60,153 nt of DNA from Microcoleus sp. Aus8_D1. Its GTDB lineage: Bacteria > Cyanobacteriota > Cyanobacteriia > Cyanobacteriales > Microcoleaceae. The notes beneath the pieces were generated by a model. That model was given only the letters and a program-made list of their open reading frames with translations, did no database searches and was not told the origin of the DNA. Positions within the stretch are counted from its first letter, which is position 1; each line of letters begins with the position of its first letter. The translations under genes were made by a program, and so were the position numbers. This document shows positions 11,172 through 52,305 of this stretch, one piece after another. Location: contig NZ_JAUBUO010000016.1 of assembly GCF_036702645.1 (NCBI RefSeq), positions 92,186 through 152,338 on the forward strand, read 5' to 3'.

Positions 11172-11238
11172 CGACAAAACTTACGCAACTTCTTGAGAGC
11201 GCAAAAACTCAGCAAGTCTATTTGTAGCATTTCGTAGG

Positions 11239-11272
11239 GGCAATCCCCCCGTGGTTGCCCCTATTTTTTTGA
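11239..11272 (+). terminator. Hairpin GGGGCAA-tccccccgtgg-TTGCCCC followed by a T-run; putative intrinsic terminator
   Basis: 7-bp stem then TATTTTTTT. The same core tccccccgtggttgcccc recurs at 40744..40762. Confidence 0.35.
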
Positions 11273-40720: not shown

Positions 40721-40861
40721 ATACTGGGGGATTGTAGGGGCTTTCCCCCCGTGGTTGCCCCCTGCTGCTGCAGAAGAGTGGTTGCCCCCTGCTGCTGCAG
40801 AAGAGGGTAGGCACGGCGAGGCACTACCCCTACAAATTGTTCGCAATTCATAATTGAGGAC

Positions 40862-42457: not shown

Positions 42458-42928
42458 TTAGAAACTTTCCATTAAGGTTTTTTCTTGAGCGTAAACATCT
42501 CGTAGTTGTTGCAGTGCTGAGGCAGAAATTACCGATTTAACTGTAGCGACTAATGTACCCCATTCCAGCAAGCTGTCAACTGAAACAGCGGCTTTGAAGT
42601 TGTACGTATAGAATTTAGTCCAAAATTCTGGTGCTTGGGTGCGTTTCCAGCGTTTGTACCAGCCGAGAAAATCTTGAGCGCAGGCTGGTTTTACTTCTAA
42701 GATTGGGGGGAAATCGGCGTAGCTGACAAATCTACTCAGGCCTTTGGCGTGTACGTACACCATGTTGTGACAGCATTCGATTCGGTAAATTTGGTCGGGC
42801 GTGATGTTGAACAAAAGTGCTACTGTTTCTTCGGTGACAAATCTCGATCGCGGATTGACTATTGACGATTTGTGAATAATTTTTGAGGCGCCGATCGCTG
42901 ACGACCTTAACTGATTCTCTGATATCAT
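42458..42928 (-). CDS. Hypothetical protein, 156 aa
   Basis: Clean ORF with HIP1 sites; no recognisable family. Confidence 0.4.
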   Translation of the reverse strand: MISENQLRSSAIGASKIIHKSSIVNPRSRFVTEETVALLFNITPDQIYRIECCHNMVYVHAKGLSRFVSYADFPPILEVKPACAQDFLGWYKRWKRTQAPEFWTKFYTYNFKAAVSVDSLLEWGTLVATVKSVISASALQQLRDVYAQEKTLMESF

Positions 42929-43423: not shown

Positions 43424-43745
43424 AGGGTGTGTCGCCTGCGAAGAATCCCTAACTAAATATCGAAAATCTCAAAGCTCCGCACCTGTCAACTCGCCCGATC
43501 GCCAATAAAGTCGATCGCCTACAATCAAGTATTCGGGTGTGTCGCCACAAAAAATCCTTAGCCAAACATGAAAAATCTCAAAGCGACGCACCTGTGAACT
43601 CGCCCGATCGCCAATAAAGTCGATCGCCTACAATCAAGTATTCGGGTGTGTCGCCACAGAAAATCCTTAGCCAAACATCGAAAATCTCAAAGCGACGCAC
43701 CTGTCAACTCGCCCGATCGCCACTAAAGTCGATCGCCTACAATCA
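43424..43745. repeat. Tandem array of ~3 copies of a 109-bp unit immediately upstream of the NACHT gene
   Basis: acctgt(c/g)aactcgcccgatcgccaataaagtcgatcgcctacaatcaag... recurs at 43481, 43590 and 43699. ORF 43320..43508 and the 43648 start extension are repeat artefacts. Confidence 0.85.
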
Positions 43746-43785
43746 AACTAACCCGCTTCGAGCAGCGCATCAGGAGAACCGTCAA

Positions 43786-46700
43786 ATGTCAGATCCGATT
43801 ACCTTGGGCTTGCTTTTCACAGTCGCTTGGCAAGGCATACTAGGAACTCAAGTTAATGATGCAGCAAAACATCTCTGTTTGACAGGCATTAAAAAGATAT
43901 CGCGAAACGGTAAAATTGTCAATCACGATTTAGAAAAAGCGCTGAAAACATCTTTCCTGAAAGCTCAGCAGCAAATCGCCTCAGAATGCAAGCAGGAAAT
44001 CGATCCGAAAAATAGCGCTAACCGAGAGAGTTTTAGCTATTCGCTGCAAGACAGGCGGCGCGATTTTGATTGGTTGAAACGAAAGCTCGAAAAGCTCAAA
44101 TTAGATTTAGAACAGGTTAATAAAGAAACAGTCCCGTCTGGGATTCCGATTGAGGGTTTAGATGAGATAGAATTGCTGCTGACTGCCACAGATGAGTTAA
44201 AGCAGAATCGGGTAGCAGCAGTTGAGCAAAAATTGCTGGAAGTTGCCCTCGAAAATTGCGATGTCGCACATTACAAAACGAAGTTAGAGCAAGAGTTGTT
44301 TGCCTTGGTGGCTGCATACTTTGCTCAAGAAATCAAGGAAAATGAAAAGGTTTTTCAGATATTCACCGGGCAAACTTTGACGCGAATTGATACCACAACC
44401 CAAGAGATGTATGCTTGGCTTGAGGAGATTGTGCAAAAGAGCCGCATTGTTTACCAACCGATTGACTGGCGGGCTATTTGTCAGCAGATTTTAGACGAGA
44501 AAGAACAGCAGCGGCTCAGTAGCAATCAGCTAACTTTTGGCGATCGTCAAATTGATGATGTTTATGTGCCGCTGGGATTGGTTGAACGGCACAAAGTGAC
44601 TCAGCGCCGGGAGGATTTGGCGGCGGAGGAAGGTTCGGATTTGTACCGGGAAAAAGAAGTAACTCAAACCTTTGAAAATAAGGAGTTTCTGGAGCAAGTT
44701 TTGCGGGGAGGAAGTAGCCCGAAGAGCAATGGGAAGCGGTTAGCAATTATTGGGGAACCGGGGGCGGGGAAAACTACGCTGTTGCGGCAGATTGCTAATT
44801 GGGTGGCGGAGGAAATTTCCGAGGCGATTGTTATTTGGGTTGCTTTGGCGGATTTGCAGGGGAAAGATTTAGAATCGTATTTATTTGATACTTGGTTGCT
44901 GGCGGCAATTAAGAGGGTTGGGAAAGCTGAGGCGACGGCGGATATTAAAGATGATTTTTTAGCACAGTTTAATGCTGAGCGGGTTTGGTTGGTGTTGGAT
45001 GGCGCGGATGAGATGGCTGCGGGTGATGGGAATCCTTTGGCGGAAATTCAGCGACAAGTTAGAACGGGCGGCTGTGTTCAAAGGGCGCGGATTGTGCTAA
45101 GTTGTCGGCAGAATGTTTGGGATGCGATCGGCTCTGCCTTGGATACTTTTGATACTTATCGTACTCTGGAGTTTTCCTATCCCGAACAGGTGGAAATGTT
45201 TATCGATAAGTGGTTTGGAACCCCCCCTAACCCCCCCTTGCTAAGGGGGGGGACAAGAGAAGAAGGGGATACTTTTGCTCGTGGTTTATCAACGCAGGCG
45301 ACAGGAGAAGGGAACACTCTTACTCCCCCCTTAGCAAGGGGGGCTGGGGGGGTTCTTCCTCCCTCCATCCCAACCCAAAATACAGAAGAAACTCTTACTC
45401 CCCCCTTAGCAAGGGGGGCTGGGGGGGTGCTTTCCCAACAGCTACGGGAAGCATTAGCAGCATCGGGGAAAGAGCGAATTCAAGACTTAGTAAAAAATCC
45501 GCTGAGATGTTCGCTGCTGTGCGGTACTTGGCAGTCGTTGGATGGGGATTTGCCGGATACTAAGGCTAAGCTTTATCGGCGGTTTGTGACTGCTTTGTAT
45601 CAGTGGAAGGAACCGCGCCTGAATTGGAGTCAGCAGCAGGATTTGAATGCGGCTTTGGGGAAATTGGCTCTGGCTGGGATGTTAAATGAAACGGATCGGT
45701 TTCAGTTACGAGAAAGTGTGGGATATCGGGTGATGGGTGCATCGCAGTTTGAGATAGCTTGCCGCTTGGGTTGGCTGAATTTGGTGGCGAGGGATGCGGA
45801 GACGGCGGAAGGGATTTATGCTTTTTATCATCCGACTTTTCAGGAATATTTTGCGGCGTTGGCGGCTGAGGATTGGCATTTTTTCTTGAATCATTTTCCT
45901 GGGAATCCGCAGCATCCTGATGCTCGATATCGGATTTTTGAGAAGCAGTGGAAGGAGGTTATTTTGCTGTGGTTGGGCCGTGAGGAGGTTGGGAAGGAGG
46001 AGAAGGAAGCGTTTATTAAGGCGTTGGTTGAGTTTGAGGATGGGTGTGGTAAATTTTATGGAGATCGGGCATATTTTCTCGCGGCTGCGGGGATTGCTGA
46101 GTTTAAGGATTGCAGTTTTGCTGATGAGATTGTGTCGCAGGTTATTAAGTGGGGGTTTGGTTATTTTGATGAGGAAAAGCAGGAGTGGCAAACATTTATC
46201 GCTCCACTGGCAGAGAGTTCATGGGATATACTGAAGGAGACGGATCGGAAAAGGGCGATCGTAGCTTTAGTTGAGTCAATCCGCAATTCAGGTAATGAAA
46301 AAACCCGGTGGATAGCGGCAAATATATTAGGGGAAATAAGCAAAGATAATCCAGTTGCGATCGAAGCTTTCGTCGAGTTAATCCGTAATTCTCAGGATGA
46401 AAATACCCGGAGGGAGGCGGCAGCTAGCTTAGGAACAATAGGCAAATCTAACCCTGTTGCGATCGAAGCTTTAGTCGAGTTAATCCGTAGTTCTCAGGAT
46501 GAAGATACTTGGAAGCAAGCGGCAAAAAGCTTAGGAGAAATAGGTGAAGATAACCCAGTTGCAATCTCCGGGTTAGTCAAGTTAATTCGCAATTCAGGCG
46601 AACAAAATACCCGGATGACAGCGGCAAATAGCTTAGGAAAAATTGACATAAATAACTTAGTTATACTTGTAAATTTTGATGAACTGAGTGCTACTTCTGA

Positions 46701-47607
46701 AGATGACAATACGATGATTAAATTGGCATATAGCTTGTCAAAATCAGTAACAAACAACTCTCTGATACTCGCAAATTTAGATAATTGCGACGAGCTTATT
46801 GGTACTTCTGAGGATGACAATACCTGGAGAAATGCCCTAAATATCTTAGGAAAAATCGAAAAAGATAACTCAGTTGCGCTCTCAGCTTTAGTCGAGTTAA
46901 TCGGTACTTTTCAGGATAAAAATACCCGGAGGAGAGCGACTGTAAGCCTAGGGCAAATATGCAAAAACAACCCGGATGCGATCGCCGCTTTAGTCGAGTT
47001 AATCAGCAATTCAGGTGATAGACATATCCGTAGTATAGCGGCAGATAGCTTAGGTGAAATCATGAAAGATAAACACTTCGCGATCGCAGTCTCTGGTTTG
47101 AAAGATTGCCTAACTTCCGAAATCTACAAAAACGACTTTACTCTTTATCACAAGTGCTGCCTCGTCATCTCTGACTGTGCCCAAAGCAAGACTTACCCAG
47201 AATTTTATCAAGCATGGCACACTCAACCCACCAATTCCCCAATACCGGACAACCACCCACAAAATCCAGATATCCCCACACTCCTAAAACAACTCAAACC
47301 CACAGATAAAACCTTCCCCGTACCCCTCAACATTCGCGCGTTAGAAGGCGAAACCGATATAAGCCCGATCGCCCAAGAACTCTGTACCCAACTATATCAA
47401 ACAATCTTCCCCGCAGATACAGACATCCCCGCCATCCGCAACGCCCCGGAATTCAAGCGATTAATCCCCCAACTCAAACACCGGCTGCAAAAACCGCACA
47501 TCGCCTTAATCTTGCACTCGTGCCCGTGCGAAAATGCGCTTTCGTCTTTCACCCGCAAACTCGCCGACTCTCACATGGGTATTCATATCGCCTGGATTAG
47601 CGATTAA
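43786..47607 (+). CDS. STAND NTPase: unknown N-terminal domain + NACHT + C-terminal HEAT (PBS-lyase-type) repeats
   Basis: Walker A GEPGAGKTTLLRQIANW and Walker B VWLVLDGADEM. At least 8 HEAT-like repeats (AIEALVELIRSSQDEDTWKQAAKSLGEIG...). Start at Met47 of the track ORF, after the CAGGAGAA RBS. Confidence 0.85.
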   Translation: MSDPITLGLLFTVAWQGILGTQVNDAAKHLCLTGIKKISRNGKIVNHDLEKALKTSFLKAQQQIASECKQEIDPKNSANRESFSYSLQDRRRDFDWLKRKLEKLKLDLEQVNKETVPSGIPIEGLDEIELLLTATDELKQNRVAAVEQKLLEVALENCDVAHYKTKLEQELFALVAAYFAQEIKENEKVFQIFTGQTLTRIDTTTQEMYAWLEEIVQKSRIVYQPIDWRAICQQILDEKEQQRLSSNQLTFGDRQIDDVYVPLGLVERHKVTQRREDLAAEEGSDLYREKEVTQTFENKEFLEQVLRGGSSPKSNGKRLAIIGEPGAGKTTLLRQIANWVAEEISEAIVIWVALADLQGKDLESYLFDTWLLAAIKRVGKAEATADIKDDFLAQFNAERVWLVLDGADEMAAGDGNPLAEIQRQVRTGGCVQRARIVLSCRQNVWDAIGSALDTFDTYRTLEFSYPEQVEMFIDKWFGTPPNPPLLRGGTREEGDTFARGLSTQATGEGNTLTPPLARGAGGVLPPSIPTQNTEETLTPPLARGAGGVLSQQLREALAASGKERIQDLVKNPLRCSLLCGTWQSLDGDLPDTKAKLYRRFVTALYQWKEPRLNWSQQQDLNAALGKLALAGMLNETDRFQLRESVGYRVMGASQFEIACRLGWLNLVARDAETAEGIYAFYHPTFQEYFAALAAEDWHFFLNHFPGNPQHPDARYRIFEKQWKEVILLWLGREEVGKEEKEAFIKALVEFEDGCGKFYGDRAYFLAAAGIAEFKDCSFADEIVSQVIKWGFGYFDEEKQEWQTFIAPLAESSWDILKETDRKRAIVALVESIRNSGNEKTRWIAANILGEISKDNPVAIEAFVELIRNSQDENTRREAAASLGTIGKSNPVAIEALVELIRSSQDEDTWKQAAKSLGEIGEDNPVAISGLVKLIRNSGEQNTRMTAANSLGKIDINNLVILVNFDELSATSEDDNTMIKLAYSLSKSVTNNSLILANLDNCDELIGTSEDDNTWRNALNILGKIEKDNSVALSALVELIGTFQDKNTRRRATVSLGQICKNNPDAIAALVELISNSGDRHIRSIAADSLGEIMKDKHFAIAVSGLKDCLTSEIYKNDFTLYHKCCLVISDCAQSKTYPEFYQAWHTQPTNSPIPDNHPQNPDIPTLLKQLKPTDKTFPVPLNIRALEGETDISPIAQELCTQLYQTIFPADTDIPAIRNAPEFKRLIPQLKHRLQKPHIALILHSCPCENALSSFTRKLADSHMGIHIAWISD
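45232..45425. repeat. Three copies of a near-palindromic mini-element CCCCCCTT(A/G)GC(A/T)AAGGGGGG embedded in frame in the NACHT gene
   Basis: 45232-45252 in one orientation; 45315-45352 and 45388-45425 as a 38-bp direct repeat in the other. They encode PPLLRGG / PPLARGAGG. Confidence 0.75.
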
Positions 47608-47640: not shown

Positions 47641-47666
47641 TTTAACCCCTTAAATAAGGGGTTAAA
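47641..47666. repeat. Island palindrome family, copy 1 (TTTAACCCCTTAAATAAGGGGTTAAA)
   Basis: Perfect 11-bp arms. Related copies at 49302, 51469, 51682, 54661 and 57558. Confidence 0.8.
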
Positions 47667-47750: not shown

Positions 47751-49202
47751 ATGAAAGCTCAATCTCAAAAGGCACAGTCCGCTTGTGATGTATCTGTTTA
47801 CTCTGACAAAGGGTCACTCGCCTTGCGCTTCCCCAAGCGCCATAGCACCCTGTGGGAGCTACTAGACGGTAAATCACTCAAGGGTAAGCCTAAGTGCTTA
47901 GGAATAGGCAAATACGGCTACTCTGATACCCCAGAGGATTGGAAGCGGGCTAGCCAAATTGCTGCTGCGATGGAGGCTGATTTAGACCATCCAGAGTGGG
48001 AAAAGCTGTTTGACCCTACCCTTGCTAAATATGGCTTAGGAGGGGGCAAATATGCTAAGTTAGCTGATGTACTTCAATTGCCGGGTACGACTCAAACCGT
48101 ACCTGAGATAACCGTAGGTGCGATGTGGGAAGCATATCTATTGTGGAAAAAAACAACCATAGAAGAAACTACTTTTGACACAACGTACAAAAAATATGGC
48201 AACATAATTTACGGTAAAATTTTTCAAAACAAGGGTAGTCAGTTGACACTATCTGACAACCCGCTAGCTACCGTTCATTTAAATGACAAACAGGGTATTG
48301 AAACCGCGCTTGATTCAATAACATCCAAACTCAAAACTTTGAGTTTGAGAGCGTTAAATCAAGCCTTTGAGTATGCCCAATCAAAAGGATTAATCGTTAA
48401 TTCGGCTACTAACAATCCTTTTGCTACTAACAAATTTAGCGTACCTGTTGTCACAACACAGCAAAAGTATGCTGACAAAGTAGTTAATGGTGAGATTGTA
48501 GAATGGCATGAAGTAGAGGATGAGAAAGCTTTAGAGAATGATAAGCGTGCCTTTACTAAGGATGAACGTGATATCATCATCAAAGCGTTTTATGAGTCTG
48601 ATAGCAATAGAACTCGCAAAGGTTCTATCATGTTTGCACCGTTTATCGAATTTCTGTTTTTAACGGGTTGTCGCCCTAGCGAAGTTTATGCACTAACTTG
48701 GCGTGACGTTAATTTTGAACGTCATGTTATCAAAATTAGTAAGTCACTAGGTGCTTCTACTCGCAAGGTTAAAAACACTAAGACGGGCGAGAGCCGCTTG
48801 TTTTATTTTGAAGATTTTGAACGTTTAAAAGCTTTGTTGTTAGAAATTAAAGGCGACAAAACAGAGGGTTTAATTTTTTCAAATGCCAATGGGGGGTATA
48901 TAGATACTTCTTCCCTAGGGAGAGTTTGGCGTGATTATGTAAAAAAACAAACTCTCAAATCAGGGGAAGAAGTAACGTATTTCTATCCCGGTATAGTCTC
49001 ACAATTGGCTCGTGAAGGCAAAATTAGTGGTTATTTAGCGTCCTATCATTGCCGTCACACTTACATCACGCTAACCGCGCAAGCTAATAGCCACAATAAC
49101 AACGCTCTGTTACGCATAGCTAGCAGTTGTGGCAACAGTGTGGATGTGATTCTAAGACATTACTTAGGTATTAATGAGTCAACAGAGTTAGTAGTAGTCT
49201 AA
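47751..49202 (+). CDS. int: Tyrosine-type site-specific recombinase / integrase
   Basis: Catalytic box SYHCRHTYITL (HxxR) and VILRHYLG (Tyr); LTGCRPSEVYALTWRDV arm. First gene of the HIP1-free, AT-rich region. Confidence 0.85.
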   Translation: MKAQSQKAQSACDVSVYSDKGSLALRFPKRHSTLWELLDGKSLKGKPKCLGIGKYGYSDTPEDWKRASQIAAAMEADLDHPEWEKLFDPTLAKYGLGGGKYAKLADVLQLPGTTQTVPEITVGAMWEAYLLWKKTTIEETTFDTTYKKYGNIIYGKIFQNKGSQLTLSDNPLATVHLNDKQGIETALDSITSKLKTLSLRALNQAFEYAQSKGLIVNSATNNPFATNKFSVPVVTTQQKYADKVVNGEIVEWHEVEDEKALENDKRAFTKDERDIIIKAFYESDSNRTRKGSIMFAPFIEFLFLTGCRPSEVYALTWRDVNFERHVIKISKSLGASTRKVKNTKTGESRLFYFEDFERLKALLLEIKGDKTEGLIFSNANGGYIDTSSLGRVWRDYVKKQTLKSGEEVTYFYPGIVSQLAREGKISGYLASYHCRHTYITLTAQANSHNNNALLRIASSCGNSVDVILRHYLGINESTELVVV

Positions 49203-49221
49203 CCCTACCCAGTACATACCT

Positions 49222-49249
49222 ACCTACCCTAACCCGGTAGGTTTTTTTG
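49222..49249 (+). terminator. Intrinsic terminator after the integrase gene
   Basis: ACCTACC-ctaaccc-GGTAGGT followed by TTTTTT. Confidence 0.55.
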
Positions 49250-49738
49250 TGCCTACTTACTGAGTGAACCTGTAGGTCATATCATCAGTAAATATATAAC
49301 TTTATCCCCCCCAATATGGGGGGATAAATAATAAAAATATTACAGCTACTAATCAAAACTGAACCCCCCTATATTTAAATAGATAAGTTTTATTAATGAA
49401 GTGAGTCGCTATCCTTTCCCTTCATTTTTTGCAATTTATAATCACTCATGCTCTTAATCGCCACAGAAACAGCCATTTTTGCCTCCTTTAAGGCTTGAAA
49501 GGTACAAAACCCTGGGGGGGATTTATTTTTCTTTACTACCTCTTTCTACCCACTATTTTTGTATCTCTCTGTTCATGTTTTTTATCTAGTTAGTTAGTTC
49601 TAATGCAATATTTCCGTTACATTGATTTACAATTACTCTAATTTTAATATTAATAAAACTTATCTATTGTACTCCCCTATACTCGTAAATGTTTACAAAT
49701 CTTACATATGTACATCACTTAAATAACACTGTTTAATG

Positions 49739-49767
49739 TTGACAACGATGTTACCAACCTATAAAGT
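49739..49767 (+). promoter_or_regulatory. Near-consensus sigma70-type promoter TTGACA-N17-TAAAGT inside the gene-poor AT-rich stretch
   Basis: Seen directly. No plus-strand ORF for ~800 bp downstream, so it may drive an ncRNA, possibly antisense to minus ORF 49862..50101. Confidence 0.3.
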
Positions 49768-50556
49768 TCCGTAATCCTGTACTACTAAATCCGCTTTATT
49801 TACCCACAAAAAAGTAGACCAACTGAGATTGACCTACTTTGATTTACGGTTTAATAGTGCTTTAGCCGTTACAGTAAACAAAACGGATAATAGCACCTTG
49901 TGGTTTCAAATGTTGGTTGTGTTCGTCTAATTTAATTTTCCACCATCTCCGACGGCATCTATCAATTATGCTATCGCCATCCTTAAGCGCTTCTAGCTTA
50001 TAAGCAGGGACGTACCTATTCTTTGTCAGGTAATGAGATGTTACTATGTGTTCCCAATAATGGGGCATAGAGACGGGTGTATTCTCGTAATTCACAATCA
50101 TTCTGCCACTTCCTTGTTCAGAATACTTTGCGCTTAAATCGCTGGCTGTTTTCAGTATATGTCAAAATATTTCAAAACCATATAGGTTTACAAAATCAGT
50201 ATAGCGTTAAAATGGACTAAAACAGGGTGTAAATAGTAAATATAAAAATAGCCAATAAAAAACCCTCCTATTCAACTTTTTTGTACCTTTTAGTCTAATT
50301 AAGTAAGCTATAATAAATAAACCATATTAGCGACTTACGCTACAAACAAAGGTTATATAACGAACTTTTATTTTTTCTGTACCATTACCCGTAACAAAAC
50401 TTTACAGAACTTAACGGTTATACCGTTGACAAGCGGCTGCAAACCTGCAATCGTGAGTAACTAAGGAAGATTGATGCGCGGTAATGCGGTTTTGACGAAC
50501 CACACTAACCACGACTTCCCCAAACGTTTACAACCAACGATTGGAACAGAATAACT

Positions 50557-51162
50557 ATGACAGATTTACCGTTATCAAGTGATTTGCGATCGCAAATCGT
50601 AACGTCCGCGTTAGAAGAGCGAGAAGAATACTGTTCGGCACGTAAAAGCCTAGGTTTCAACTCAGGTTTTGTTTTTGGTAACTTGGGTGCTGGGAGTTTC
50701 GAGTTCTACAAACAGCTTGCTAAGAAACTAAATATAGATTCCTATGCAAAATGTTTCGGCAATGTAACCATGACTGAAACATGGAAACGTCTAGTGCATT
50801 ATGAGGGTGAGTTTCCTCCTCCTGAATCGATAGAGCGAACAGAGCGAAAAGCGAAGTTACCGAATGAGAGTCCACATATCGCTCTTAAAAAAGCGACTGT
50901 AATGGAGGAATACTTAGGGAATTCCGACAAAGCTCAAATAAACATGGTAACTGACATCACCCCACAAAGTATTTTACAGTTACCGATATTGCCTCTTTCT
51001 TCACTCCATTTTTTACCTCCTTCTCGTGGTTTGTTCTTTGTGATGGTAAGCAAAACAGAACCAAAAGTTATTTATGTAGGCAAATCTCAAAACTTAAAAG
51101 TTTCTTGGGAACCTGTTTATACCCGTAGCAGGTGTCCAATTGCAGGACACAGAAAGCGATAG
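50557..51162 (+). CDS. Hypothetical protein with a GIY-YIG-like C-terminal motif, followed in the same frame after one TAG by ORF 51172..51402
   Basis: LFFVMVSKTEPKVIYVGKSQNLKVSW resembles the GIY...YVG motif. 51172 is in frame with 50557, so this may be a disrupted gene. Confidence 0.35.
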   Translation: MTDLPLSSDLRSQIVTSALEEREEYCSARKSLGFNSGFVFGNLGAGSFEFYKQLAKKLNIDSYAKCFGNVTMTETWKRLVHYEGEFPPPESIERTERKAKLPNESPHIALKKATVMEEYLGNSDKAQINMVTDITPQSILQLPILPLSSLHFLPPSRGLFFVMVSKTEPKVIYVGKSQNLKVSWEPVYTRSRCPIAGHRKR

Positions 51163-51400
51163 GTAACTACCTTGACCAACTTAGGACTTGACTTGTATAT
51201 TAGGTGGATACTTTTACCCGGCGGTAACGAACCTTCTGTGTGGCAAGAAGACATTGACAGTAGCCAACTTTCTTTGTGGCAAGCTCACGCCAACAAAGTG
51301 CTTAGTCCCTTCTTTTTGGGTAGGGAAATAGGAGATGAAATTACTTTAGACTGGGATTTACCAATGCCTCGCCACTGGCAACAAATCTCTAGAAAAGAGT

Positions 51401-51884
51401 AAGTTTGTCAGGTTAGGTAAAGTTAATATGCTAATGAGTCCTTTGGGTAGGGGGACTCATTTTTATTGTTTATCCCCTTATTTAAGGGGTTAAAGTTAAA
51501 TAATAGATTATCAATTATCCTACATATTTTTACTCTCACCAAGTCGAAAATCACTACTCTAGAGTCTGCCAAGCATAGCGATATTTGTACTTTGTGTTAT
51601 GGCCTAAAATCAAAACCGGGTTTTTCACCCCAAAACGTCATTTTAATTTTTTATAAATGGGGGTTTTGGGAGTGTTTATGATTTATCCCCTTATTTAAGG
51701 GGTTAAAGTTAAAGTGCAAGATACTAAGCTAGATTTTAGAGGGTGTGGTGTCTAGATTATGCCTAGAAAGTGACAAGCCACAATTAAGCAATCTCAACAA
51801 CTAGGATAACGTAAATAGGTTAAATGACTAGAAAGTATCTAGAAATCAAGGATAGGATGGCTGAAAGCATTGGTAAATGGTAAC
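51401..51884. repeat. Left arm of the long inverted repeat flanking ppk; carries a 195-bp insertion (51496..51690) bounded by duplicated palindromes
   Basis: Reverse complement of 54487..54753 aligns at >95% identity apart from the insertion. Confidence 0.85.
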
Positions 51885-52051
51885 TAATCTGGATTAGCGC
51901 CACACCGCTGGAATTGCCGTTAACAGGTTTTGCGGTGGATGCAGAGGATTTGTTGGAGGCGGTGCAGGATTGGATTGCGGGGATTGGTGCGTGATATGAT
52001 GTTATGCCTTTGGGGCGGGCTAGAAGCCCACCCCACAAGAGTTTATACTCG

Positions 52052-52152
52052 TTACCAGGCTCTGCCTGGTAACGCAGATCCGGGAGGCTCTGCCTCCATT
52101 TTACCAGCCGAGGCAGAGCCTCTGAATATGGGTTCCAAGGCTCTGCCTTGGA
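52052..52152. promoter_or_regulatory. Cluster of four hairpins in the ppk leader with a conserved GGCTCTGCC core and covarying stems
   Basis: ttaccaggCTCTGcctggtaa (52052-52072), ggaggCTCTGcctcc (52083-52097), gaggCAGAGcctc (52110-52122, opposite polarity), ttccaaggCTCTGccttggaa (52132-52152). Confidence 0.4.
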
Positions 52153-52305
52153 ACCAGTTAAGTTTTAATTTCTTCAACCCCTCTGAGCTCGGGTTTTGTC
52201 TGTGTCGGCGCGATTTCAATCGCCCGCAACCGCCCCACTACCGCAATACTACTGCAATACTAATGGTAAAGATACAATCGAGCCTCCCCAAGACTCCCGC
52301 AAACC

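Follow-up and report, generated by a model that had tools for sequence, protein, structure and literature searches.

A hairpin-forming, REPIN/MITE-like repeat read in frame within a NACHT gene of Microcoleus

A NACHT gene of Microcoleus sp. Aus8_D1 carries three near-palindromic hairpins in frame. Hairpins 1 and 2 are the inverted arms of one REPIN/MITE-like element, and hairpin 3 belongs to a second, tandemly duplicated copy of the right arm. The region is probably a single copy of a dispersed repeat, hairpin-forming and non-autonomous, that has been kept in a loop and later changed locally, and the family to which its modules belong is mostly intergenic and mostly cyanobacterial. The window, that is, the whole stretch of 60,153 nucleotides that was analysed, contains one such element only, and the features discussed here are the following.

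43648-47607, plus strand: host ORF, intact, 1319 aa from the first GTG, probable start M47
45217-45441, plus strand: hypervariable insert of 225 nt, encoding GTPPNPPLLRGG...PPLARGAGGVLSQQ, bounded by the conserved FIDKWF and LREALAA
45217-45259, minus strand: left arm, inverted module GGAA-C7-TAA-[C7 TTGCTAA G8]-ACAAGAG, inverted repeat
45260-45315, no strand: central G/A-rich spacer, loop of the long hairpin, differing in length among orthologues
45316-45355, plus strand: right arm copy A, ACTCTTACT-[C6 TTAGCAA G6]-CT-G7-TTC, direct and inverted repeat
45391-45430, plus strand: right arm copy B, ACTCTTACT-[C6 TTAGCAA G6]-CT-G7-TGC, direct repeat of copy A at +75 nt, 98%
45231-45252: hairpin copy 1, CCCCCCCTTGCTAAGGGGGGGG, inverted relative to copies 2 and 3, encoding PPLLRGG
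45325-45343: hairpin copy 2, CCCCCCTTAGCAAGGGGGG, in the same orientation as copy 3, encoding PPLARGAGG
45400-45418: hairpin copy 3, CCCCCCTTAGCAAGGGGGG, in the same orientation as copy 2, encoding PPLARGAGG

The three palindromic repeats picked out by the sequence-only reading were recovered as C6-TT-NNN-AA-G6 hairpins at 45231, 45325 and 45400, and all of them begin, as it had held, in frame, at codon position 1 of the ORF; dinucleotide-preserving shuffles of the window gave no hairpin match, and no copy is expected by chance. The inversion of one copy and the 38-bp direct repeat of the other two were also borne out: read as its reverse complement, copy 1 matches copies 2 and 3 across 28 nt with 3 mismatches. 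Those two belong to a direct repeat of 42 nt (45316-45357 and 45391-45432; 98% identity, 75-nt spacing) with no difference in its initial 38 nt. TRF, run on the window, left the repeat uncalled because similarity survives in only 42 of the 75 nt of the duplication. The 20-mer consensus that had been proposed fits only with 1-2 mismatches, the true core being 19 nt long around a central triplet (TT-GCT-AA, TT-AGC-AA). The repeated unit exceeds the palindrome and also includes a second C/G run and the CTCTTACT / ACAAGAG flank, the basic module of ~40 nt being CTCTTryT, C6-TT-NNN-AA-G6, 2-5 nt, G6-8, (A/T)TC. The same peptide is indeed encoded by both orientations, since the palindrome is read in the same phase; this is a trivial consequence of the palindrome and does not point to design. 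Given these loop triplets, a stop interrupts one frame in three on each strand.

The strong DNA and RNA hairpins that had been anticipated are supported by the predicted folds. As DNA, 45217-45358 folds into a single hairpin (dG -41.1 kcal/mol, z -6.1) with an outer stem of 10 bp (GAAC-C6 / G6-GTTC), an inner one of 21 bp and ACAAGAG/CTCTT pairing, and as RNA the region 45205-45445 reaches -123.9 kcal/mol (z -5.0). The arms are 89% complementary between 45223-45250 and 45325-45352, and the complementarity of copies 1 and 2 reaches ~40 nt, flanks included. The core of the element (45217-45355) is small, 139 nt, and has no coding capacity of its own, its arms of ~40 nt constituting terminal inverted repeats. 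An intrinsic terminator was ruled out because the hairpin is not followed by a downstream T-run, and an Rfam E-value scan of 44800-45900 returned merely hairpin-shaped chance matches (miRNA and snoRNA models), far below gathering scores.

The host ORF comprises, in this order, an N-terminal region, NACHT, HEAT repeats, NCC-H and NCAB1, and the nearest relatives of its protein are Microcoleus NACHT proteins. The repeats had been described as lying inside the NACHT domain; the Pfam NACHT match corresponds to ORF residues 365-523 and the insert follows directly C-terminal of it, outside the NTPase core. At the edges of 45217-45441, the initial GG(A) and the terminal CAACAG may be host sequence. 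In the AlphaFold model, residues 232-290 present pLDDT <50 and no secondary structure and separate helix 213-222 from helix 291-304; averaged over blocks of 10 residues, pLDDT is 23-35 across the encoded loop. The encoded segment is predicted from this model to be a disordered Pro/Gly loop joining two confident helices, just past the NACHT NTPase core. For the NACHT gene, the ~70-aa segment is in practice best treated as a variable passenger loop, outside the NACHT fold.

The segment had been proposed to be specific to a lineage, and the orthologue alignment agrees. In Nostoc, Calothrix, Kamptonema and Phormidium the site reads FG-SFPSAETQTG-QQL, a short unrelated linker of ~11 aa with no element sequence, while Microcoleus orthologues hold 57-376 nt of the same element parts with 1-5 hairpins, and the element is retained throughout the Microcoleus/Tychonema clade. 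The right arm is present in 2 copies here and in 1-4 copies in relatives. The closest relative (locus L121) has a clean tandem array of 3.5 units with a 75-nt period (97%); in L131 the arm has been duplicated along with the host coding sequence SQQPGEALDE; the minimal orthologues L124, L125 and L128 have exactly one left and one right arm, L126 presents a compact 57-nt form, and in L127 and L133 a different repeat occupies the same site. The gene is split by a change of G7 to G8 within the element of L121 and of C7 to C8 within that of L132, two frameshifted loci that both come from metagenome-assembled genomes, in which sequencing or consensus error is possible; homopolymer run lengths are otherwise identical among all intact orthologues. 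Many orthologues of the NACHT gene are fragmented, and some of the breaks fall outside the element. There is no empty site among the close relatives, so that a clean single insertion event is something that we infer and do not see; TTTC at both element ends, a possible target-site duplication, is found in L124 only.

Related modules are dispersed well beyond this gene. A scan for C6TTNNNAAG6 in 596 Gb of sequence recovered at least 120 loci, a figure to be read against a chance expectation of ~100 for this 16-base pattern. Cyanobacteria of many orders account for 64 of the 80 loci among the matches listed, which include Microcoleus, Lyngbya, Microcystis, Spirulina, Pseudanabaena and Leptolyngbya in addition to non-cyanobacteria. 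Across the many genomes of these listed matches, 133 of 148 hairpins have an extra C5+/G5+ run within 5 nt, ATC follows this run in 73 of 140 cases, and 43 different loop triplets occur; the few non-cyanobacterial matches that lack the extra run may be chance matches. An identical module of 27-37 nt, CTCTTACT flank included, recurs at the unrelated loci L129 (a non-coding tandem repeat) and L078 (CysRS); in metagenome contigs the exact 27-mer is found at only 3 loci, two of them orthologous. Inverted doublets of the same architecture occur at L058, L007, L028, L052 and L081, and the prophage-like contig L207 holds 11 near-identical copies in both orientations. The spanning open frame has a median of 220 nt at hairpins vs 1036 nt at random positions, and frames of at least 600 nt are present at 24% of hairpins vs 72% of random positions. 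Members read in frame, in all three phases across coding loci, were found in genes for LeuRS, CysRS, UvrA, an Eco57I-type methylase, kinases, a histidine kinase, an NRPS and a CHAT protein, and single modules stand alone in some genes, such as LeuRS (L010). In the LeuRS case, a 93%-identical orthologue carries a degenerate module of the same length and an 82%-identical one an unrelated linker only 9 nt shorter; the comparison yielded no readable insertion boundary or target duplication because the orthologue linkers are of similar length. A 37-nt Microcystis array was considered as a CRISPR and rejected because spacers are absent. No paper that names the element turned up in literature searches by string (GGGGGGATC, AAGGGGGG) or by topic.

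The view that a palindromic repeat has colonised coding DNA therefore stands as regards a dispersed family, present at many unrelated loci and sometimes in frame; the part that did not hold is the origin of the three copies from separate mini-elements. Three independent insertions of a ~20-nt palindromic element, in either orientation and each preserving the frame, would be compatible with the lone modules seen in other genes and with the use of all three phases by the family, but such a history is decidedly improbable given that copies 1 and 2 are complementary well into their flanks, that the 42 nt common to copies 2 and 3 recur in a 75-nt register which becomes a clean tandem array in L121, that host sequence was duplicated together with the arm in L131, and that the minimal orthologues consist of exactly one left and one right arm. 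The strong copy-number variation and the internal duplications at the site, together with a LeuRS module that resembles in-place divergence with unchanged length, could instead suggest a purely local low-complexity or tandem expansion of a Pro/Gly linker, with no mobile or dispersed family and with incidental palindromy. This is very improbable, since it would have to accommodate an identical module with a freely varying loop triplet and the same flank at L129 and L078, a hairpin with second run common to 90% of the 148 hairpins among the matches listed, and the near-identical copies in both orientations on a single prophage-like contig.

Co-option of the element could also be envisaged, with its C/G homopolymers acting as a slippage switch of an NLR-like gene (phase variation), or with the strong mRNA hairpin or the loop of variable length tuning expression or activity. 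The two independent +1 run-length changes that split the gene exactly within the element, the constancy of the runs in all intact orthologues, the very stable RNA fold and the maintenance of the element across the Microcoleus/Tychonema clade are consistent with such a role. It is nevertheless improbable, considering that both frameshifted loci come from metagenome-assembled genomes and may reflect sequencing or consensus error, that the same element is found in housekeeping genes and intergenic DNA, that L127 and L133 carry a different repeat at the site, that the loop is predicted to be disordered, and that the NACHT gene is broken at further positions outside the element.

A single insertion followed by local change, the preferred reading, could have proceeded as follows. 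Two modules inverted around a G/A-rich spacer allow 45217-45355 to fold as one long hairpin, and this unit would have entered once, in the Microcoleus/Tychonema ancestor, into a loop-coding stretch past the NACHT NTPase core. It would have survived because it is read without stops in the frame used, its C-runs, G-runs and TT/AA giving Pro, Gly, Leu and Arg/Lys, and because the site is tolerant, the modelled surface loop between two helices being likely to accommodate a disordered Pro/Gly-rich segment of ~70 aa. Later change would have been local and without new insertions, involving tandem duplication of the right arm, substitutions in the loop triplets, a deletion between two hairpins leading to the compact form of L126, and homopolymer slippage that would have split the gene in two relatives. 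The element would thus be a tolerated selfish passenger, neutral for its host. Relaxed selection on the NACHT gene, in place of loop tolerance, could explain its persistence, since many NACHT orthologues are fragmented.

Several groups of known repeats share part of these properties. RPE (Ogata et al. 2000) are described as dispersed palindromes of ~100-150 bp, intergenic as well as in frame in intact ORFs that include essential enzymes, translated as an additional peptide at structurally tolerant positions and found in Rickettsia only, each family having its own conserved peptide (PMC10969869, PMC3733652). Compared by description, RPE are the closest analogue of the element, which is an analogue and not a member because its host, Microcoleus, is a cyanobacterium. 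Both are palindromic dispersed repeats that are read in frame and leave the ORF open (1319 aa here; also LeuRS, CysRS, UvrA, kinases and NRPS), but the Microcoleus family consists of a ~40-nt module with C6-8/G6-8 runs in which the loop triplet varies freely; it uses all three reading phases and extends across cyanobacteria and some other phyla. REP and REPIN are short, G+C-rich imperfect palindromes, mostly extragenic and mobilised by RAYT (TnpA-REP) (PMC3116915, PMC6006769, PMC3733652). The present family resembles them in these traits of sequence and of mostly extragenic location (median open frame 220 vs 1036 nt), in comprising both singlets and inverted doublets able to form a single long hairpin (45217-45358, z -6.1), and in the homogeneity of the copies within a genome (L207); it differs in that a second C/G run replaces the GTAG/CGTC tag at the palindrome foot. 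A RAYT gene did not appear among the 25 Pfam families most often matched by 150 adjacent ORFs.

Bacterial MITEs are exemplified by Nezha and the Anabaena MITEs (PMC3184786, PMC10969869). The element is similar to them in its length of ~140 nt, terminal inverted repeats, lack of coding capacity, stable hairpin and occasional ORF fusions, and is unlike them in that its arms occur also alone as ~40-nt singlets. A target-site duplication could not be demonstrated, and the 8-kb flanks showed no parent IS whose ends match. The Nostoc punctiforme repeats SDR1-8 (Elhai et al. 2008) are described as hairpin-forming repeats of 21-27 nt, often nested in other repeats (PMC5861425, PMC3116915) and reported as confined to Nostocaceae (PMC5861425). 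They too are very short, hairpin-forming, dispersed cyanobacterial repeats, and it is by this reported host range that they are set apart from the present family, which occurs in Oscillatoriales, Chroococcales, Pseudanabaenales and Spirulinales and beyond the phylum.

Rickettsia provides the best-known examples of palindromic selfish DNA that colonises genes in frame; in-frame palindromic elements are also common in free-living cyanobacteria, where they reach core enzymes (LeuRS, CysRS, UvrA). The element itself is interesting and not unprecedented. For those who annotate or assemble cyanobacterial genomes, it yields Pro/Gly-rich pseudo-domains, contig breaks and apparent frameshifts. With a module architecture conserved across orders and, to our knowledge, no mobilising enzyme for the family, it also constitutes a concrete mobile-element problem.

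The 150 ORFs adjacent to hairpins are ordinary genes as judged from the 25 most frequent of their 158 Pfam families, among which there is no transposase or HUH (Y1 transposase) family, and a single RAYT locus per genome would be rarely sampled by looking at such ORFs. No parent IS with matching terminal repeats was seen in the 8-kb flanks of the hairpins, and on the copy-rich contig L207, which encodes a tail tube protein as well as a serine recombinase, no transposase appeared either. The hairpin has neither GTAG nor CGTC beside it, the flanks being TAA, CT, TTA or CTA, followed by the C/G run. Because neither a RAYT-type GTAG tag nor classical IS features are present, a novel spreading machinery is possible; there is an outside chance that the module represents an undescribed ancient palindromic family, extending from cyanobacteria to planctomycete- and Nitrospirae-type genomes and prophage, that has such a machinery, has repeatedly given rise to Pro/Gly loops in essential proteins and provides homopolymer frameshift switches in NLR-like defence genes. 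HIP1 insertion, as for SDR5, was considered and rejected: the ends are often CGATC...GATCG, yet the base after GATCG is inconsistently C. A separate family of GTAG-tagged palindromes is present in the window at 11234 and 40734.

The NACHT-HEAT gene and the three C-run/G-run palindromes that it contains are located as follows:

43648-47607, plus strand: host ORF, 1319 aa, containing all three palindromes
45231-45252: palindrome copy 1, CCCCCCCTTGCTAAGGGGGGGG
45325-45343: palindrome copy 2, CCCCCCTTAGCAAGGGGGG
45400-45418: palindrome copy 3, CCCCCCTTAGCAAGGGGGG

The presence of three palindromic copies in this ORF, first noted from the sequence alone, was confirmed by a sequence scan; dinucleotide-preserving shuffles of the 60-kb window gave 0 matches, and all three palindromes begin at codon position 1, encoding PPLLRGG, PPLARGAGG and PPLARGAGG. 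The 20-mer consensus proposed for the palindrome fits only with mismatches, since the core spans 19 nt around a 3-nt centre. The repeated unit exceeds the palindrome in length: the 28-mer CCCCCCTTAGCAAGGGGGGCTGGGGGGG has two exact occurrences and one reverse complement with 3 mismatches, and copies 2 and 3 lie inside a 42-nt direct repeat (45316-45357 and 45391-45432; 98% identity, 75-nt spacing), whose first 38 nt are exact and correspond to the 38-nt repeat already described.

The left copy with its flanks (45217-45259; GGAA-C7-TAA-C7TTGCTAAG8-ACAAGAG) is the reverse complement of the right copy with its flanks (45316-45355; ACTCTTACT-C6TTAGCAAG6-CT-G7-TTC), and a repeat search returned arms of 28 nt with 89% complementarity, together with outer arms. 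As single-stranded DNA, 45217-45358 folds into one long hairpin (dG -41.1 kcal/mol, z -6.1; 0 of 200 shuffles fold as well), with a 10-bp outer stem (GAAC-C6/G6-GTTC), a TAA/CT internal loop, and a 21-bp inner stem formed between the left and right palindromes, in addition to an ACAAGAG/CTCTT pairing. The RNA fold of 45205-45445 reaches -123.9 kcal/mol (z -5.0), so the strong hairpins anticipated for both DNA and RNA are borne out. The region is one REPIN/MITE-like inverted-repeat element with one of its arms duplicated in tandem. The sequence-only reading, correct in its observation, was thus partly right in its interpretation: instead of three separate insertions, copies 1 and 2 are the arms of a single inverted repeat, and copy 3 repeats the right arm in tandem, 75 nt further downstream.

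Pfam matches on the host ORF comprise NACHT (residues 365-523), HEAT repeats, NCC-H and NCAB1, and its nearest proteins are Microcoleus NACHT proteins with up to 95% identity, which places the window in a Microcoleus-like cyanobacterium of the Oscillatoriales. The insert had been placed within the NACHT domain; it starts at residue 524, immediately C-terminal of the Pfam match and outside the NTPase core. In an AlphaFold model of ORF residues 301-800, based on the protein alignment A1, model residues 232-290 have pLDDT <50 (10-residue block means of 23-35) and no secondary structure, and are positioned between helix 213-222 (...EQVEMFIDKW) and helix 291-304 (QQLREALAAS...), while the flanking blocks average ~67-85. 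The repeat-encoded segment is therefore predicted to be a disordered loop joining two helices.

In alignment A1, the Nostoc, Calothrix, Kamptonema and [Phormidium] orthologues carry at this position a linker of ~11 residues (e.g., GSFPSAETQTG) between FI..WF and QQLC/REAL, without Pro/Gly runs, and all Microcoleus/Tychonema orthologues have extra sequence, in agreement with the proposed lineage-specific insertion. The DNA of eleven orthologous loci was compared over the stretch excised from FIDKWF to LREALAA, with the following inserts:

window: 225 nt; left arm, long spacer, 2 right arms
L121 (closest relative, 95% aa identity): 376 nt; 3.5 units, 75-nt period, 97%
L122, L123, L130: 321 nt; additional partial left end, 3 right arms
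L132: 250 nt; additional partial left end, 2 right arms
L131: 249 nt; 3 right arms, repeat unit taking in host sequence (...VLSQQPGEALDETL...)
L124, L128: 123 nt; 1 left and 1 right arm
L125: 105 nt; 1 left and 1 right arm
L126: 57 nt; compact palindrome C7-TAA-C4ACCTTAGCAAG6-CT-G7

Insert lengths are divisible by 3 in all intact genes and, as read from the ORF, the element would be translated in frame within an otherwise intact gene. Both its copy number and its homopolymer lengths differ between relatives. The pattern of inserts fits one ancestral element later altered by local duplication, deletion and slippage, and does not match repeated insertions at the site. The compact form in L126 would be the expected remnant of a deletion between both hairpins. 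A single insertion probably occurred in the Microcoleus/Tychonema ancestor and presumably persisted because the C/G runs and TT/AA are free of stops in the frame used and the loop accepts extra residues, with slipped-strand or unequal recombination between arms producing the later changes. In a sub-clade (L127, 2432-2551; L133, 2432-2536) the linker site is occupied by another repeat, ACnAATCCCCTCAATGTAGGGGCGGTGCCCCCGTGCCCGCCC, which contains GTAG and encodes TNPLNVGAVPPCPP; the L133 insert starts with CGATCCCCC, a left-end remnant of the C/G element, ahead of this repeat. The site thus tolerates, or attracts, more than one kind of palindromic repeat. Another repeat-derived segment (PPEGGHGGTAPT) is found at a second site, after FFLNHI, in three orthologous proteins (P0005, P0009, P0010).

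Homopolymer run lengths are identical among all intact orthologues. In L121 the final G-run is G8 instead of G7 and the gene is called as two ORFs (642 and 768 aa); in L132 the inner C-run is C8 instead of C7, breaking the gene into 599 and 593 aa. Both alleles come from metagenome-assembled genomes (MAGs), so slippage and assembly error are indistinguishable. The element might serve as a switch based on its homopolymers, as a hairpin in the mRNA or as a linker that can be tuned, and these two frameshifted alleles are the only observations that point that way. Further breaks in this gene family fall outside the element; the orthologous gene, intact in the window, is often fragmented or truncated (L121, L122, L124, L126, L128, L132) and is evidently often decaying within the genus. 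Its upstream companions are a conserved 72-aa HTH gene and a 156-aa ORF (42458-42928, minus strand).

The element is a hairpin-forming inverted repeat from a dispersed family. A scan for CCCCCCTTNNNAAGGGGGG over one genome per species (596 Gb) returned at least 120 loci; a 16-base pattern would be expected to give on the order of 100 chance matches, which leaves room for a few isolated hits to be noise. Most hits are nevertheless not due to chance, since their flanks, unconstrained by the search, share runs and motifs: 133 of 148 hairpins have an extra G (or C) run of at least 5 within 5 nt (one side in 126, both in 7), followed by ATC in 73 of 140 cases, and the upstream flank is frequently CTCTTgyTC, while the loop triplet takes 43 different values. 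The window copies match this architecture exactly. Among the matches listed, 64 of 80 are cyanobacterial (including Microcoleus, Tychonema, Lyngbya, Laspinema, Nostoc, Calothrix, Microcystis, Crocosphaera, Spirulina, Pseudanabaena, Leptolyngbyaceae), and the others listed are mainly Planctomycetes and Nitrospirae-type MAGs.

Inverted doublets like that of the window occur in L058 and L007 (GGAACCCCCCCTCAGTC-hairpin, ~20 nt, hairpin-GCCGGGGGGGGTTC), and also in L028, L052 and L081. In a Microcystis ichthyoblabe chromosome (L064, 6482-6945) the same module forms 12 head-to-tail copies of a 37-nt unit, CCCCCCTTATCAAGGGGGGACTAAGGGGGGATCGGCA, a tandem array without spacers, which rules out a CRISPR. 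The module recurs unchanged over 27-37 nt, with its free AGC loop and ACTCTTACT flank, in an unrelated non-coding tandem repeat (L129) and as a tandem array in a Microcoleus CysRS gene (L078), which argues for copying between loci over independent origin. A scan of viral contigs gave 78 stretches; L207 (4071-11351 of IMG/VR contig 3300032160_001195), a high-GC, prophage-like contig with a large serine recombinase and a phage tail tube protein, has 11 copies, nearly identical to one another and lying in both orientations, over ~7 kb ( cTC-CCCCCCTTCGCAAGGGGGG-GCA-GGGGGGG-TCGGGTGAA), indicating within-genome homogeneity. Several contigs (L013, L022, L042, L087, L100) start exactly at a hairpin, as expected because assemblies break at repeats.

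In a set of 130 hairpins lying clear of the ends of their loci, the median length of the longest open frame across the hairpin is 220 nt, versus 1036 nt at random positions in the same loci, and open frames of 600 nt or more hold 24% of hairpins versus 72% of random positions. Most of the family therefore lies between genes. The smaller share inside genes is read in frame, and all three phases occur (PPLxRG.., (S/A/P)PLxKGG, xPPxxGG). Its hosts in Microcoleus include LeuRS, CysRS and a CHAT-TPR protein; Nitrospirae-type MAGs have it in UvrA and in an Eco57I-type methylase, and further hosts are Ser/Thr kinases, a hybrid histidine kinase and an NRPS. The 150 ORFs adjoining hairpins represent 158 different Pfam families, those listed being ordinary metabolic or housekeeping ones, and no transposase or HUH family is among the 25 most frequent. 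No target duplication was established from the LeuRS orthologues compared, the one at 93% identity having a degenerate module of equal length and the one at 82% a linker that is unrelated and just 9 nt shorter.

Among known systems the Rickettsia palindromic element (RPE) comes closest, as a palindromic repeat with in-frame insertions in many genes, and a review suggests that comparable processes may exist in other prokaryotes (PMC10969869, PMC3733652). In-frame palindromic selfish DNA is not unprecedented, and the element is a further example. The definitions of REP/REPIN and MITE apply to it in part: doublet shape and within-genome homogeneity resemble REPINs, whereas the GTAG tag defining RAYT-linked REPs is absent. 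The SDRs of Nostoc (Elhai) are similar in size and phylum but differ in host range, being reported as confined to Nostocaceae (PMC5861425). Rfam holds nothing matching the element, and a literature search of incomplete coverage, which does not establish the family as undescribed, found no paper naming the C6/G6 module. The family is widespread and mainly cyanobacterial, and its member here is carried in frame as a predicted disordered loop just past the NACHT NTPase core. Its conserved architecture without a known mobilising enzyme is of specialist interest, as are its occurrence in essential genes and, within an NLR-like gene, homopolymers prone to frameshifts.

Other repeats are present in the window. 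A GTAG-tagged palindrome, GTAGGGGCwwTCCCCCCGTGGTTGCCCC, has two copies (11234-11261 and 40734-40761; 0 expected by chance) and is a distinct REP-like repeat family of the same genome. Between the NACHT gene and ppk, a low-GC (0.37-0.39) segment of ~4.7 kb (47751-52300) includes a tyrosine recombinase gene (47751-49202; Phage_integrase, E 1e-8), with a separate palindrome, TTTATCCCCCCCAATATGGGGGGATAAA (49302-49327), just downstream; the segment looks like an inserted island, because only ~370 nt separate the two genes in L121. An A/T-richer palindrome, TTTAA-CCCCTTAAATAAGGGG-ATAAA, has four copies, at 47646 (39 nt past the NACHT stop codon), 51474, 51687 and 54665 (past the ppk stop codon). The copies at 51687 (reverse complement) and 54665 have ~60 nt of flank in common, forming inverted repeats that bracket ppk, and those at 51474 and 54665 share the other flank.
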